Sequence record: NC_052653.1
Reading direction: 5' to 3' (one strand)
Source of the DNA: Escherichia phage vB_vPM_PD06
Length of the DNA: 64,000 bases
Part shown: piece by piece, positions 30,770-58,430 of the stretch
Numbering within the stretch: position 1 is the stretch's first letter
Layout of the letters: each line of letters begins with the position of its first letter
Translations under genes and position numbers: made by a program
The notes under the pieces: model-generated
What the model saw: only the letters and a program-made list of their open reading frames with translations
Told to the model about the DNA's origin: nothing
Databases searched by the model: none

Positions 30770-30882
30770 AATAAATACTGTTAAGTTGAAATGCTTTATT
30801 AGAATTGTGCGTTAAGGAGTCGCACCCCTCCATCTCAGAAGGAACTAGGCTTGTTCTTCGAAGACACCGCTGGCACGGAGTT

Positions 30883-30958
30883 TGGTCGTGGTAAACGGAG
30901 TCGAACCGTTGTTTCTCGATTATCGGTCGAGTGTACTAACCATCTGTACGATACCACA
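30883..30958 (-). tRNA. tRNA-Ile (anticodon GAT)
   Basis: Hand fold: 7 bp acceptor (U1-G72), T arm AACGG/TTCGACT/CCGTT, anticodon stem CTCGA/TCGAG, loop CCGATAA (C at position 33 is unusual), CCA encoded. Confidence 0.55.
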
Positions 30959-30963
30959 ATAAT

Positions 30964-31060
30964 TGGCAGCAAGGTGAGGAATCGAACCCCTTGATCTATG
31001 GTTTGGAGCCATATTGAGTACCATACTCTTTTAAATCTACCCAGCTATGAGTTCCTTGAG
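30964..31060 (-). ncRNA. tRNA-like sequence with Trp-type (CCA) anticodon hairpin, non-canonical 5' half
   Basis: T arm AGGGG/TTCGATT/CCTCA, 3' acceptor CCTTGCT-G-CCA, perfect hairpin TATGG-CTCCAAA-CCATA and D-like GAGT...ACTC, but no matching 5' acceptor strand at canonical distance. Confidence 0.3.
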
Positions 31061-31104
31061 GTGTCAATGTAATTTAATCATTACACCAGAAGGGAGGTAT
31101 TTAG

Positions 31105-31183
31105 TGGAGGCGGGAATCGGATTTGAACCGATGATCTCCAGCATATGAAACTGGCGAGGACGACCAGACTCCTCTATCCCGCG
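31105..31183 (-). tRNA. tRNA with CAT anticodon (elongator Met or Ile2 type)
   Basis: T arm ATCGG/TTCAAAT/CCGAT, anticodon stem CCAGT/GCTGG, loop TTCATAT, 11-nt D loop; position 1-72 is an unpaired C-C. Confidence 0.5.
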
Positions 31184-31198
31184 CAATCTGTAATAATT

Positions 31199-31283
31199 TG
31201 GTAGCTAAGGTGAGACTCGAACTCACAATCCCTTGGGGCAATACGTTCTAAGCGTATCGTGTATACCATTCCACCACTTAGCC
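31199..31283 (-). tRNA. tRNA-Leu (anticodon TAG), type II
   Basis: 85 nt; acceptor GGCTAAG/CTTAGCT, anticodon stem ATACG/CGTAT, loop CTTAGAA, long variable arm, T arm GTGAG/TTCGAGT/CTCAC, CCA encoded. Confidence 0.6.
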
Positions 31284-31360
31284 ATAATAAGTACACCACT
31301 GTAAGAAGCCTCAATGTGCTATTGACAGTTAACCAAGTCTACTCCTTGGATGGTGTTATT

Positions 31361-31435
31361 TGGTGCAGAGAGATGGTAACGATCCATCCTTTCTACCTTT
31401 TCAGGGTAGCACTAATCCGTCTCAGCTATCTCTGC
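31361..31435 (-). tRNA. tRNA-Phe (anticodon GAA)
   Basis: Perfect acceptor GCAGAGA/TCTCTGC, anticodon stem CTACC/GGTAG, loop CTGAAAA; T loop ATCGTTA is atypical. Confidence 0.5.
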
Positions 31436-31440
31436 AAATT

Positions 31441-31516
31441 TGGTCAGTGCGGCAGGACTCGAACCTGCGACCTGAAGCGTCCAAGGCTCCCACGCTACCA
31501 ACTGCGCTACGCACTG
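31441..31516 (-). tRNA. tRNA-Pro (anticodon TGG)
   Basis: 76 nt; acceptor CAGTGCG/CGCACTG, D arm GCGC/AGTTGGTA/GCGT, anticodon loop CTTGGAC, T arm GCAGG/TTCGAGT/CCTGC, CCA encoded. Confidence 0.7.
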
Positions 31517-31523
31517 TAAATCT

Positions 31524-31598
31524 TGGCTGGAGATCTAGGAATCGAACCTAGTCATCACGACTTCAAAGGCCGTTGCCTTCCCACTAGGCTAATCTCCA
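31524..31598 (-). tRNA. tRNA-Gln (anticodon TTG)
   Basis: 75 nt; acceptor TGGAGAT/ATCTCCA, anticodon stem ACGGC/GTCGT, loop CTTTGAA, T arm CTAGG/TTCGATT/CCTAG, CCA encoded. Confidence 0.6.
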
Positions 31599-32029
31599 AT
31601 AAATTACTTCAGTGTTACCACAAAGTGACGAACTGCTTTTCGTGCAGCAGAAGCCAGAGGCTTAGCATACTTAAGTTCATCTTTTTCCATTATAAATTCT
31701 CTTTTAAATGAAAATGCAGGACTTATTGGCATTGCCTGCGCAAGCCCTCAAGGGGAACATAGGTTTTTGGATATTTAACGACCAGGATAACCATAAACCC
31801 GTCATCATTCACATTCAAGAGGTACACCATAAAACTGCCGGGGTCTTAAAACTATAATGATTCGCAAATCATTAATCAGACAGTTCGATGGCTCCTCGAT
31901 TTTAGCTCACACTAAGGCAGTGAATCTCCAATAAACTAAAAAATCACTTAAAAAGAACCGCTAGAGTTTGAAGGAGAAAACCATGAGCGAAAAGAGAAAT
32001 TTTCTCTAGCGATTCCATTTAAATAATCT

Positions 32030-32104
32030 TGGAGCGAGTAACAGGACTTGAACCTGCACCTGGAGGGTGGAAACCTCATATGCTACCATTAACACTATAC
32101 CCGC
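32030..32104 (-). tRNA. tRNA-Gly (anticodon TCC)
   Basis: 75 nt; acceptor GCGGGTA/TACTCGC, anticodon loop TTTCCAC closed by a 4 bp stem with one mismatch, T arm GCAGG/TTCAAGT/CCTGT, CCA encoded. Confidence 0.5.
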
Positions 32105-32159
32105 TTAACAATATTACTCTAACATACTATTAGCCCCTTTGTCAAGAGGCTTTTGATAC

Positions 32160-32489
32160 TTATTTTAAAATAGTAGATGCACCACGTCTGTTTAGATATG
32201 CAATAGTAAAGTCCAAATCACCTATTTCTTCAGGTTCCCACTGACCTTCTAAGCCATAACAAGAACAATGATATGCGTGTACTTCATAAAACAAAGATGT
32301 TTTCATATCATAAAAATAAACGTGAGATTCACCTTCATAATATGCACAATCATAAGTGGCAGAAAGAATTACAATGTTATCCTTATCTAACTCTACTTCA
32401 TAATATCTTTCAACATCTTCAATATCATCAAAACCATCGAAAACATTGATATTAAAATATTTCTCTAACTCTTTTTCTGTCACATACAC
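32160..32489 (-). CDS. hypothetical protein inside tRNA array
   Basis: 109 aa acidic, Tyr/Cys-rich ORF between tRNA-Gly and tRNA-Thr. Confidence 0.45.
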   Translation of the reverse strand: MYVTEKELEKYFNINVFDGFDDIEDVERYYEVELDKDNIVILSATYDCAYYEGESHVYFYDMKTSLFYEVHAYHCSCYGLEGQWEPEEIGDLDFTIAYLNRRGASTILK

Positions 32490-32506
32490 TCCTTTAGAGT
32501 TAAAAT

Positions 32507-32581
32507 TGGTGCTCCCACAAGGACTCGAACCCTGATAAGTTGCTTACAAGGCAACCGTAATAGCCGTTATACGATAGGAGC
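32507..32581 (-). tRNA. tRNA-Thr (anticodon TGT)
   Basis: 75 nt; acceptor GCTCCTA/TGGGAGC, anticodon stem GTTGC/GCAAC, loop CTTGTAA, T arm CAGGG/TTCGAGT/CCTTG, CCA encoded. Confidence 0.6.
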
Positions 32582-32587
32582 AATACT

Positions 32588-32664
32588 TGGACTCGGCAGG
32601 ATTCGATACCTGCAATTCCAGAAGCCTCTTGGCGACTGGGGGTTTACCTTAACTCTACAAGTCC
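32588..32664 (-). ncRNA. tRNA-like sequence, non-canonical interior
   Basis: 7 bp acceptor-like pairing GGACTTG/CGAGTCC and perfect T stem GCAGG/CCTGC around 8-nt loop TATCGAAT, but no canonical 5-7-5 anticodon arm. Confidence 0.25.
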
Positions 32665-32671
32665 ATAATTC

Positions 32672-32756
32672 TGGCGATGGATCAAGGATTTGAACCTTGC
32701 TAGAACTTTCGTTCACGGATTAACAGTCCGTCGCCCAACCACTAGGCCAATCCATC
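32672..32756 (-). tRNA. tRNA with Asn anticodon (GTT) and a long variable arm (type II-like)
   Basis: 85 nt; acceptor GATGGAT/ATCCATC, anticodon arm ACGGA-CTGTTAA-TCCGT, 15-nt variable region GAACGAAAGTTCTAG forming a GAAC/GTTC stem with GAAA loop, T arm CAAGG/TTCAAAT/CCTTG, CCA encoded. Confidence 0.5.
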
Positions 32757-32763
32757 TTTAATT

Positions 32764-32850
32764 TGGTGCAGGTAGTTGGACTCGAACCAACGAAGCCCCG
32801 AAGGGCAAGAGATTTACAGTCTCCAGCAATTGCCGCTATGCGATACCTAC
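32764..32850 (-). tRNA. tRNA-Tyr (anticodon GTA), type II
   Basis: 87 nt; acceptor GTAGGTA/TACCTGC, anticodon stem GGAGA/TCTCT, loop CTGTAAA, variable arm GCCC-TTCG-GGGC, T arm GTTGG/TTCGAGT/CCAAC, CCA encoded. Confidence 0.65.
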
Positions 32851-32855
32851 GTGTT

Positions 32856-32931
32856 TGGTACATCGTGAAGGATTCGAACCTTCGACCTTGGAGTTAAAAG
32901 CACCTTGCTCTACCAACTAAGCTAACGATGT
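32856..32931 (-). tRNA. tRNA-Lys (anticodon TTT) with weakly paired anticodon stem
   Basis: 76 nt; perfect acceptor ACATCGT/ACGATGT, D arm GCTT/AGTTGGTA/GAGC, T arm GAAGG/TTCGAAT/CCTTC; anticodon loop CTTTTAA flanked by AGGTG/CTCCA with two mismatches. Confidence 0.5.
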
Positions 32932-33065
32932 ATAAATTATCTTTAAAATAGCCAGTGTTTGCGGCACTTAGCTATGAAGTATTGGGGTATCGGTAAAGTG
33001 GTTACCGCCACTTGCCGAAAGTTTACTCTGCTAAAGTAAGATTACAAGCTACATTAAAGATAACT

Positions 33066-33151
33066 TGGCGGTAGATGTAGGACTTGAACCTACACGCCGT
33101 TTCCGACGACAGTTTAGCAAACTGTTGTGGCTACCATTTCACCAATCTACC
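33066..33151 (-). tRNA. tRNA-Ser (anticodon GCT), type II
   Basis: 86 nt; acceptor GGTAGAT/ATCTACC, anticodon stem ACAGT/ACTGT, loop TTGCTAA, variable arm CGTCG-GAAA-CGGCG, T arm GTAGG/TTCAAGT/CCTAC, CCA encoded. Confidence 0.65.
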
Positions 33152-33159
33152 GTTCTTAA

Positions 33160-33312
33160 TTATTCAAAACAACCGGAATCTTTTTGTTCTGCTTTTACCA
33201 TACGAATATTTTTACCATCTTCAGATTGTTGAAGATTAGAATACTCATAAACAACTTTATTATCTACAATCTTAACTCCGGTAACAACCTGTCCAATAGT
33301 TTTATAATTCAT
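33160..33312 (-). CDS. small hypothetical protein (50 aa)
   Basis: Six-frame ORF 33160-33360 overlaps tRNA-Ser at its 5' end; internal ATG at 33312 has AGGAG upstream. Confidence 0.3.
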   Translation of the reverse strand: MNYKTIGQVVTGVKIVDNKVVYEYSNLQQSEDGKNIRMVKAEQKDSGCFE

Positions 33313-33330
33313 AAAGCTCCTAGTTGAATT

Positions 33331-33420
33331 TGGAGGAAGATAATGGAGTCGAACCATCACCGTATCGCTACAATGGGCCAGGGTTCAAACCTGGTTGCGC
33401 ACCGCTGCGCCCTACCTTCC
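33331..33420 (-). tRNA. tRNA-Ser (anticodon TGA), type II
   Basis: 90 nt; acceptor GGAAGGT/ATCTTCC, anticodon stem CCAGG/CCTGG, loop TTTGAAC, ~19-nt variable arm, T arm GATGG/TTCGACT/CCATT, CCA encoded. Confidence 0.6.
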
Positions 33421-33435
33421 CGTTATCATACTTTA

Positions 33436-33465
33436 AATCTAACATAAAACTATCTTGCTTGTCAA
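33436..33465 (-). promoter_or_regulatory. candidate sigma70-like promoter inside tRNA array
   Basis: Minus strand TTGACA, 18-nt spacer, TAGATT; upstream of tRNA-Ser(TGA). Confidence 0.3.
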
Positions 33466-33483
33466 GTAGTTTTTAAAACTTTT

Positions 33484-33565
33484 TGGTCGGGGTGACAGGA
33501 TTCGAACCTGCATACTCCAATTACTCGGTTAACGCCTGATTAGAAGTCAGGTGAGATACACCCCG
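33484..33565 (-). ncRNA. tRNA-Arg(TCT)-like sequence lacking a canonical D arm
   Basis: 7 bp GC-rich acceptor CGGGGTG/CACCCCG, T arm GCAGG/TTCGAAT/CCTGT, perfect hairpin CCTGA-CTTCTAA-TCAGG, but only 7 nt between acceptor and that hairpin and a 23-nt insert before the T arm. Confidence 0.35.
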
Positions 33566-33637
33566 TTTTCACAGTAACTATAACAAAAAACTAAGTGAAT
33601 GTCAAGATATTTTTACTAAAATTATTATTTAAATTGA

Positions 33638-33743
33638 AGCCTAGTTATGGAATCGAACCATATTTCGTATTTAGTTAGACAAAGCGGTCTAACATATTTT
33701 TCAGGCTTTGATGGCCTCGGAATTACCAAATACCCTACTAGGC
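33638..33743 (-). ncRNA. 106-nt tRNA-like element
   Basis: T arm TATGG/TTCGATT/CCATA and exact 7 bp acceptor pairing GCCTAGT/ACTAGGC 106 nt apart; interior has hairpins AGGC-CATCAAA-GCCT and GTTAGAC-CGCTTT-GTCTAAC; no CCA encoded. Confidence 0.25.
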
Positions 33744-33745
33744 GT

Positions 33746-33831
33746 TGGTGCAAGTGGAGGGATTCGAACCCTCAATCATTTAAGCGTTGCGTTTTAAGCA
33801 CAATGTGTATCACCAATTCCACCACACTTGC
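33746..33831 (-). tRNA. tRNA-Leu (anticodon TAA), type II
   Basis: 86 nt; acceptor GCAAGTG/CACTTGC, anticodon stem TTGTG/CGCAA, loop CTTAAAA, T arm GAGGG/TTCGAAT/CCCTC, CCA encoded. Confidence 0.6.
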
Positions 33832-33862
33832 ATATAGGAGATGCATAGCATCTCCTTTTAAA

Positions 33863-33938
33863 TGGTGGTTCCCCAGGGTTACAATCCCTGCCCTCGACAC
33901 TTATGAGGTGTGCGCTCTCGTCAGTGAGCTATGGAACC
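33863..33938 (-). tRNA. tRNA with CAT anticodon (second copy; Met or Ile2 type)
   Basis: 76 nt; D arm GCTC/GAGC perfect, anticodon loop CTCATAA, T stem CAGGG/CCCTG with atypical loop ATTGTAA, acceptor has one mismatch at 7-66. Confidence 0.45.
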
Positions 33939-33945
33939 TTGAATA

Positions 33946-57444: not shown

Positions 57445-58430
57445 AATACTTAGTAACAGGTGGTTTAGGCTTTATTGGAAGTGCGGTAGTTCGTTTCCTA
57501 GCTAAAAATACTAAGAATGATATTTACGTTATAGATAAATGGGGTTACGCTTCAGACCCTAGAAATTTATCAGAAACACCTAATGTAAAGTTTTGTCGTG
57601 TTGACTTGACAAATGCTCAGTTAACTGCTAAGATTGTGGCAGATGTTAACCCAGATTATATAATGCATCTTGCAGCAGAAAGTCACGTAGATAATTCAAT
57701 AGCATCACCGAGTGTTTTTATAAATTCAAATATTGTTGGAACATTTAATCTTCTAGAAGCTGTTCGTTTAATGGGAGATAAATCAAATCTTAAAATGTTT
57801 CATCATATTTCAACAGATGAAGTGTATGGTGATATGGAAGAAGGGGATTATCCGTTTACAGAACAGAATCCTTATAAACCAAGTAGTCCATATGCTGCAT
57901 CTAAAGCTGCAAGCGATCATTTGGTAAGAGCGTGGCATCGTACTTATGGTATTCCGACAGTTATAACAAATTGTTCAAATAATTTTGGAGCGTATCATCA
58001 TCCAGAAAAACTAATACCTAAAACGATAACAAATATCTTGATGCATAAACCAATCCCTGTTTATGGCAATGGTCTTCAAGTAAGAGACTGGCTATACGTT
58101 GACGATCACGCAGAAGCATTACACCTAGTAGTAACTAAAGGCAAATCTGGAGAAACATATAATATTGGGAGCAGAAACCCTAGAACTAATATTGATGTAA
58201 TCTATATGATTTGTGATTATATGGATGCGGTATATCCATCTGAAACAGATGCTTGTAGCCTCATTGAGATGGTTACAGATAGGCCTGGGCATGATCTAAG
58301 ATATGAAGTGAATCCTTATAAGATTGAAAAGGAATTAGGGTGGAAAGCTAAAGGCACATTTGAAGAAAAACTTTATTCAACCATTGATTGGTATGTAGAT
58401 AACAAAGAGTGGTGGGAAAATAAAGTTTAA
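57441..58430 (+). CDS. rmlB: dTDP-glucose 4,6-dehydratase
   Basis: 329 aa; N-terminal [14 protein letters not shown] Rossmann motif, [11 protein letters not shown] catalytic YxxxK. Confidence 0.75.

Follow-up and report, generated by a model that had tools for sequence, protein, structure and literature searches.

The window, the whole 64,000-nucleotide stretch of DNA analysed here, carries a tRNA array on its minus strand at about positions 30880–33940, in which ARAGORN finds 15 genes and Rfam, at its gathering score, 14. The 3.4-kb stretch around the element of interest is 97–99% identical to phages SD2, muut and phi92, and, judged by sequence, the source DNA is that of a phi92-like coliphage (Justusliebigvirus). 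Between tRNA-Met (31105–31183) and tRNA-Ile (30883–30958), both on the minus strand, lies a 146-nt gap that contains this element, hereafter the Trp element. The phi92 RefSeq and muut records hold no annotation in the Met–Ile gap or in the gap between tRNA-Thr and tRNA-Asn.

We place the Trp element at 30964–31046 on the minus strand, as an 83-nt non-canonical tRNA-Trp(CCA) gene that includes an encoded 3′ CCA. The homology block shared with diverged phages has blastn ends that map to about 31048–30963, and a covariance model built for the class scores 86.5 bits at exactly 30964–31046. The gene lies 58 nt downstream of tRNA-Met and 5 nt upstream of tRNA-Ile. An earlier note on this DNA had drawn the element as 30964–31060, about 97 nt, with CTCAAGG (31060–31054) as a candidate 5′ acceptor strand. 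That heptamer is present but lies outside the gene: homology stops at about 31048, and the sequence upstream is not conserved.

The gene is flanked on its own strand by a promoter-like site and a terminator-like hairpin. The former (32145–32116), upstream of a Gly–Gln–Pro–Phe–Leu–Met–Trp–Ile run, reads TTGACA-18-TAGAGT and is defined by its consensus match only (10 of 12 positions, plus TG). The latter (30769–30751), downstream of tRNA-Ile, consists of AGCCTCCTTATTGGAGGCT followed by the T run TTTTGCTATT. An imperfect hairpin, GGTGTAAT-GATTAA-ATTACATTGACACC, at 31063–31090 (minus strand), takes up most of the 58 nt that separate tRNA-Met from the Trp element. Its conservation is restricted to close phi92-like relatives, and it may be a processing or structural element.

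Standard tools do not recognize the window copy as a canonical tRNA. ARAGORN makes no call at the Trp element and calls only one of the 46 Trp-class members described below. The Rfam tRNA model (RF00005) does match, but its score of 22.9 bits stays below the cut-off of 29, and it aligns the copy as a D-armless tRNA at 30967–31027. By either the gathering score or an ARAGORN call, the copy is therefore not a canonical tRNA. Folded as a single sequence, it is no more stable than shuffled sequence (z = +0.35). The locus is no clean canonical tRNA-Trp, and tRNA homology is nevertheless present.

Homologues of the Trp element

A low-stringency blastn search with the whole Met–Ile gap as the query returned matches of two kinds: near-identical sequences from phi92-like phages, and diverged sequences of 73–80% identity that cover only about 31048–30963 (~85 nt). 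The diverged homologues come from the Stephanstirmvirinae (Klebsiella phage KP13-26 and Citrobacter phage Tr1), the Ounavirinae (Hafnia phages and ‘Listeria’ phage LPML1) and the Vequintavirinae (the Certrevirus Pectobacterium phage POP15). Each fills a tRNA-sized gap of a tRNA array and is unannotated there. Their alignment reveals compensatory changes in the acceptor stem, a small hairpin and the anticodon stem, and the loop (C/T)TCCAAA is kept.

The element also turns up in Mydovirus phages and in Certrevirus phages of Cronobacter and Enterobacter. GenBank has 236 records with a full-length copy of the Ounavirinae variant, among them Felixounavirus, Shigella phage Sf13 and Citrobacter phage Michonne, and in the GenBank matches listed it is labelled ‘none’ or ‘hypothetical protein’. 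In Sf13 the element is unannotated; the paper on Sf14 reports ‘19 amino acids’ and does not specify the missing isotype. At least 300 GenBank phage records carry the Trp element, and among the matches listed none is labelled tRNA-Trp. Some GenBank records assigned to Campylobacter, Listeria, Acinetobacter, Pseudomonas and Staphylococcus phages are 95–99% identical over the elements to coliphages of the phi92-like and Felix O1-like groups. The hosts named in these records are probably mistaken or reflect contamination.

We scanned IMG/VR with two patterns, one requiring the linker TTAA and one not, and obtained about 90 tRNA-Trp-like sequences, among them about 45 further members of the class in viral metagenome contigs. 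In these IMG/VR members the invariance of TCCAAA and GGGTTCGA is imposed by the search patterns, and it is independent only in the blastn-derived set. Phage tRNA-Trp-like sequences split into two groups, canonical tRNA-Trp and the class of the window copy. From position 1 to U33, canonical sequences measure 31–34 nt and members of the class 37–41 nt; the 49:65 pair is formed in the former and absent in the latter, in which position 49 is A, whereas 8:65 is mostly unpaired in the former and paired in the latter. The class covariance model separates the groups, giving 63–85 bits for members outside its seed, 36–52 for canonical tRNA-Trp and at most 40 for the other tRNAs of the window. A weak match of this model at 57933–58027 (minus strand) lies inside a 329-aa plus-strand open reading frame and was set aside as a chance match.

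The linker-agnostic pattern gave 97 matches in the genomes of 185,579 cellular species, nearly all of them chance matches without tRNA pairing; one (L106) is a degenerate match on a contig that equals viral contig L065 in length (59,026 bp). The only clear member of the class in the cellular collection is L094 (2839–2921, minus strand; 85.4 bits), from an Erysipelotrichaceae metagenome-assembled genome. This copy sits among several tRNAs on a short, 6.5-kb contig and is therefore probably binned phage DNA.

Fold and comparison with known tRNAs

The anticodon arm that had been noticed, TATGG-CTCCAAA-CCATA (31013–30997, anticodon CCA at 31006–31004), is indeed present, together with a T arm, a 3′ acceptor strand, G73 and CCA. 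A 5′ acceptor strand at the canonical distance is also absent, as had been claimed: 39 nt separate position 1 from U33, against 31–34 nt in canonical phage tRNA-Trp. What had been missed is the strand itself. The sequence AGCTGGGT (positions 1–8, 31046–31039), located 7 nt further from the anticodon than usual, pairs with ACCTTGCT (30975–30968), and this pairing is conserved and covaries in the homologues. In the window copy 4:69 is U·U and 5:68 is G·U.

The remaining parts follow in order along the minus strand. After the 8-bp acceptor stem comes a single unpaired A9 (31038), which is A in all 40 sequences of the alignment described below and lies outside both search patterns. A connector follows, formed by GATT (positions 10–13, 31037–31034), which is the 5′ strand of an additional helix that we call helix X, and by an A/U-rich loop, TAAAA (31033–31029; family consensus Y-T-(T)-A-A-(A/T)). 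Next is a D hairpin, GAGTA-TGG-TACTC (31028–31016), with GG in its loop, and then the anticodon arm. The variable region contains the 3′ strand of helix X, GATC (30996–30993), and a conserved AA (30992–30991). The gene closes with a T arm on a 4-bp stem, GGGG-TTCGATT-CCTC (30990–30976), the discriminator G73 (30967) and an encoded CCA (30966–30964). G73 is G in 40/40 and falls outside the search patterns; CCA is encoded in most class members.

To describe the fold we used A2, an alignment of 40 distinct class members, from which four distinct sequences in two lineages lacking 8:65 were omitted. With an acceptor stem of 8 bp and a T stem of 4 bp (the 8/4 model), 92.8% of cells are paired, compared with 43–51% when the 3′ partners are slid. 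Twenty of the 23 pairs change on both sides, and the covariation score of 0.863 compares with 0.20 in shuffles, none of 500 reaching it. All eight acceptor pairs change on both sides. In this alignment, with those four sequences left out, 8:65 is paired in 40/40 (UA 23, UG 6, AU 4, GC 4, CG 3), while the conventional fifth T-stem pair, 49:65, is unpaired in 36/40. The T stem is paired in 100% of cells, the anticodon stem covaries, and the D hairpin is paired in 89.6% of cells, with all six aligned pairs changing on both sides and GG present in 38/40. RNAalifold, run without guidance, returned an acceptor stem of 8 bp in which position 4 stays open, a D hairpin of 6 bp and a T stem of 4 bp.

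The acceptor stem has central mismatches in some members. The 4:69 pair is unpaired in 15/40 and 5:68 in 6/40, and the mismatches are therefore a recurrent feature of one sub-lineage, that of the window copy, which has U·U or C·U at 4:69 and G·U or Y·Y at 5:68. The four sequences omitted from A2 keep the long connector and score 63–67 bits with the class model; L017, L020 and L051 have A·C at 8:65, and L028 may have a bulge.

Helix X emerged from a mutual-information scan, which recovered the proposed helices and then flagged new pairs that join the beginning of the connector to the variable region. We examined these pairs in 46 distinct sequences, retaining the four omitted from A2, with positions defined from anchors and thus independent of gap placement. 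The first pair (X1), between position 10 and the third base before the T stem, is formed in 44/46 (GC 26, AT 13, TA 3 and two G·T) and the second (X2) in 40/46 (CG 15, GC 11, AT 9, TA 4 and one T·G), counts reached in 0 of 5000 shuffles for either pair. X3 is paired in 29/46, mainly as TA and CG (307/5000 shuffles), and X4 in 13/46, being mostly an unpaired U·U (1281/5000). Sliding one strand by 1–3 positions gave mostly far lower counts, with maxima of 37 (X1), 20 (X2) and 32 (X3); X3 is therefore not separable from the controls. Across class members 27 distinct strand combinations occur. In the window copy the pairs are G10–C54, A11–U53, U12–A52 and U13·G51 (31037–31034 with 30993–30996). 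The same mutual-information scan found no covarying partner for the TTAAA part of the connector.

Inside helix X lie the A/U-rich loop, the D hairpin and the anticodon arm, and its 3′ strand is continuous with the 3′ strand of the anticodon stem. On geometric grounds, we infer that helix X may take over the position of the normal D stem by stacking on the anticodon stem, with the GG of the D hairpin reaching the T-loop.

Compared with the canonical cloverleaf, the 7-bp acceptor stem and 5-bp T stem are replaced by the 8/4 branch. The canonical 2-nt connector, 3–4-bp D stem (10–13:22–25) and 7–11-nt loop give way to a connector of 7–10 nt, whose positions 10–12 pair with the variable region, and to a separate hairpin of 5–6 bp with a mostly 3-nt loop. 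The 5-bp anticodon stem, the 7-nt loop with U33, the T-loop TTCRANY, the elbow GG, the discriminator and the CCA are all retained. Judged by covariation, the cloverleaf is rewired but intact and belongs to a conserved tRNA-Trp gene; its fold is well supported by comparative evidence.

The class shares CUCCAAA, G73, A1–U72, TTCGAYT and the encoded CCA with canonical tRNA-Trp of E. coli, Klebsiella phage Mineola and Aeromonas phage P19, and, like canonical phage tRNA-Trp genes, it is positioned within phage tRNA arrays. The 3′ half of the Trp element is ~80% identical to annotated canonical tRNA-Trp of T4-like Klebsiella and Aeromonas phages. Unlike canonical tRNA-Trp, the class has an 8/4 rather than a 7/5 branch and no 10–13:22–25 D stem. 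Also unlike it, the class has a 7–10-nt connector, helix X and a compact D hairpin with a 3-nt loop, and measures 37–41 nt, not 31–34, from position 1 to U33.

As far as the accessible text of the sources goes, the class is best described as a tRNA with a rewired core whose closest known counterparts are the 8/4 allo-tRNAs and the ‘E-loop’ tRNAs. Like the (8/4) allo-tRNAs, tRNA-Ser and tRNA-His described by Mukai et al. 2017 (PMC5389517), it divides its 12-bp branch as 8/4, has a long D stem capped by a tiny loop, is found in phage tRNA clusters and is missed or mis-called by standard tools. These tRNAs differ in their long variable arms and in their Ser, His or varied anticodons, none being Trp, and the accessible text describes no pairing between connector and variable region. 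The 8/4 12-bp branch of allo-tRNAs is thus found in the class, and their long variable arm and Ser-type or tRNA-Sec-like body are not. The variable region is short (5–7 nt, of which 2–4 are paired with the connector), and we therefore do not file the class as allo-tRNA.

Mukai et al. 2017 and PMC7609411 describe just one further tRNA with an extra loop between acceptor stem and D stem, the ‘E-loop’ (8/4) tRNA1 found in polycistrons of acidobacteria. Compared by description only, tRNA1 differs in its GCU anticodon, U73, soil-metatranscriptome origin and toxin–antitoxin linkage, and the E. coli GlyRS and ThrRS that were tested did not charge it in vitro (PMC5389517). Bacterial tRNA-Sec (8/5) also has an 8-bp acceptor stem, with a 6-bp D stem and a 4-nt loop (PMC7609411), but differs in its 13-bp branch, long variable arm, UCA anticodon and lack of connector or helix X. 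We found no published description of an 8/4 or extra-helix tRNA-Trp in phages.

Other unusual RNAs in the array

A 77-nt tRNA-like RNA lies between tRNA-Asn and tRNA-Thr at 32588–32664 on the minus strand. The earlier note had seen acceptor and T stems here and no anticodon arm, and this description holds: a 7-bp acceptor stem, a D-like region and a 5-bp T stem with an 8-nt loop, UAUCGAAU, are present, a 7-nt anticodon loop is absent, and a 22-nt hairpin, CCAG-UC-GCC-AAGA-GGC-UU-CUGG, replaces the anticodon arm. The element scores 29.4 bits with the Rfam tRNA model in a short-stretch search and is >95% conserved in Justusliebigvirus and Phapecoctavirus phages.

The exact T-arm string of this element, CAGGTATCGAATCCTG, occurs in >120 viral contigs and >100 distinct elements (related loci L187–L306). 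Perfect 7-bp acceptor pairing is found in 78 of 100 distinct copies, compared with 16% for shuffled sequence. The copies range from 68 to 245 nt and vary greatly in their cores, and a class-II-like D arm recurs in many of them. Most lie outside tRNA arrays, ARAGORN calls one of 102, and Rfam holds no family for them. By these sequence features they look like a family of tRNA-like RNAs without anticodons.

The T4 stable RNAs C and D (species 1 and 2) resemble the 32588–32664 element in having tRNA-like acceptor and T arms without an anticodon arm, and in being encoded inside or beside a phage tRNA cluster. T4 rnaC differs in its normal 7-nt T-loop and its length of 139 nt, against an 8-nt T-loop and 77 nt. 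With this difference in the T-loop and no sequence similarity detected, we regard rnaC and rnaD as analogues only, not as relatives. The acceptor-like stem of T4 rnaC (L307, 1909–2047, minus strand), CGATTCG/CGTTTCG, has U·U at pairs four and five, just where one Trp-class sub-lineage has its Y·Y mismatches.

A third unusual RNA, an Arg(UCU)-like tRNA at 33484–33565 (minus strand), has no D hairpin, only 4 nt at the site of the D arm, a 22-nt variable region and an encoded CCA. It scores 40 bits with Rfam and is missed by ARAGORN and by the phi92 and muut annotations; a near-consensus promoter-like site lies just upstream (33605–33577, minus strand). The gene is conserved in Felixounavirus, T5-like, Vibrio and Mydovirus phages, and one T5-like record labels it ‘tRNA-OTHER’. 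A single compensatory change hints that its connector also pairs with the strand after the anticodon arm, in a CTC:GAG helix.

Probable function as a tRNA-Trp

The window copy has the anticodon loop CUCCAAA and a complete Trp identity set, C34 C35 A36, G73 and A1–U72; in A2, G73 is present in 40/40 and A1–U72 in 32/40. E. coli tRNA-Trp has the same anticodon loop, A1–U72 and G73. Of the 46 class members, 38 lie within 100 nt of a same-strand tRNA, most at 2–14 nt. We examined 35 tRNA-rich loci that carry the element and at least five other tRNAs, and found a separate tRNA-Trp in none of these loci, which are partial contigs rather than whole genomes. The other 19 isotypes all occur, each in 12–29 of the 35. 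Bacterial Trp identity depends mainly on the anticodon, the discriminator and the first pair, and in B. subtilis acceptor pairs 2–5 also contribute (PMC9976931). 8/4 tRNAs are reported to work in translation in E. coli, and phages are among the carriers of 8/4 tRNA-Ser and tRNA-His (PMC5389517).

These data argue, at a probability of about 0.8, that 31046–30964 (minus strand) encodes a working tRNA-Trp(CCA) of non-canonical structure that is transcribed in the array, processed by the host, charged by TrpRS and reads UGG. Counting against this reading are the lack of excess stability in the single sequence, the mismatches at 4:69 and 5:68 in the window's sub-lineage, which fall among the acceptor pairs that contribute to Trp identity in B. 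subtilis, the failure of the tested synthetases to charge the ‘E-loop’ tRNA1, and the four class members that lack 8:65. The element carries the bacterial TrpRS identity set, and charging by the host TrpRS and reading of UGG are therefore the most likely course. We infer processing, aminoacylation and decoding from a fold established by covariation and from the conservation, array context and isotype complementarity seen across the class. The RNA would be transcribed within the phage tRNA array and excised by host tRNA-processing enzymes. Its 8-bp acceptor stem would stack on the 4-bp T stem, preserving the 12-bp branch read by EF-Tu. After the invariant A9, helix X (2–4 bp, positions 10–13 with the variable region) would enclose the A/U-rich loop, the 5–6-bp D hairpin and an ordinary anticodon arm in turn, to be followed by AA, the T arm, G73 and CCA. 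The G18/G19 elbow contact could come from the YGG loop of the D hairpin. Once aminoacylated by host TrpRS and decoding UGG, the RNA would give the phage its own supply of the sole tRNA species that decodes Trp. Escape from host tRNA-targeting enzymes is one conceivable selective reason for the unusual core.

Two alternatives replace the rewired core with another fold. A 7/5 tRNA of the usual kind, enlarged by an insertion in the D region, would require the 49:65 pair that 36/40 sequences lack, while 8:65 forms in 40/40, and we rejected it. A D-armless, mitochondrial-type tRNA with AGTATGG (31027–31021) as its 5′ acceptor strand would account for the Rfam alignment at 22.9 bits, and in phi92-like sequences AGTATGG pairs with 6/7 bases of the 3′ strand; across the family, however, this acceptor helix is 53% paired, which is chance level, and it was rejected as well. 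Together these two folds are very unlikely. Still less credible is a decaying tRNA-Trp pseudogene or remnant that has lost its 5′ acceptor strand, one of the two possibilities raised in the earlier note for this element and for the one at 32588–32664. It would fit the missing ARAGORN call, the sub-threshold Rfam score, the lack of excess stability in the single sequence and the lack of annotation among the GenBank matches listed. Against it, the full-length unit is conserved across three phage subfamilies at 73–80% identity, with compensatory changes in all four stems and in helix X, the 5′ strand exists and covaries, and the element is the only Trp gene, and thus the sole Trp decoder, of the arrays. 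The observation behind the note was largely accurate, although the true 5′ strand had been overlooked; the comparative evidence bears out the reading as a non-canonical tRNA and contradicts that as a decaying remnant.

A less remote alternative, though still an unlikely one, is a tRNA-like RNA that is produced and matured yet plays no part in translation. Such an RNA might act as a sponge or decoy that occupies TrpRS or a host nuclease directed at tRNAs, or it might serve in regulation or priming; recognition by the protein that binds it would then preserve the anticodon loop and the acceptor end. The non-canonical core and the central acceptor mismatches in one sub-lineage would suit this role. 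The same array holds a tRNA-like RNA without any anticodon loop, and phage tRNAs are known to act against tRNA-cleaving defences (PMC10264068, PMC11555353, PMC11464382). The ‘E-loop’ 8/4 tRNA was inactive with the synthetases tested. Yet every decoding feature is kept (the 12-bp branch, the 7-nt loop, U33, CCA, A37, A38, the T-loop, GG, G73 and the terminal CCA), and the element substitutes exactly for the missing Trp isotype in arrays with the other 19. A nuclease-resistant replacement tRNA, moreover, would still translate. A role in translation is thus the most likely reading of the sequence evidence.

Beyond a functional tRNA-Trp gene, we tentatively propose, with slightly more doubt than belief, that the class represents an unrecognized tRNA topology. 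The 5′ strand of the D stem would pair with the variable region beyond the anticodon arm, the D hairpin would become a side arm, and the RNA would be the sole, fully functional tRNA-Trp of phi92-like and Felix O1-like phages and of Certrevirus and Mydovirus (Vequintavirinae). The Arg(UCU)-like tRNA at 33484–33565 may share the principle, with its extra arm on the other side of the anticodon arm, and the core could evade a host enzyme that recognizes the canonical elbow or D arm.

For annotation, the tRNA inventories of cultured phages whose genomes carry the element apparently lack one whole isotype, an omission that distorts analyses of phage tRNA repertoires, of codon compensation and of which tRNAs phages carry and why. 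If the RNA is charged and used, the L-shape can be built with a D-stem strand paired to the variable region and with an 8/4 branch. This would widen the known limits for TrpRS, EF-Tu, RNase P and the ribosome, and offer a natural scaffold for orthogonal tRNA design. Phage tRNAs are known to replace host tRNAs destroyed by defence nucleases. A rebuilt core, rather than an altered anticodon loop, would be a different route of escape from tRNA-targeting defences, and one directly testable in well-studied phages of E. coli and Salmonella.
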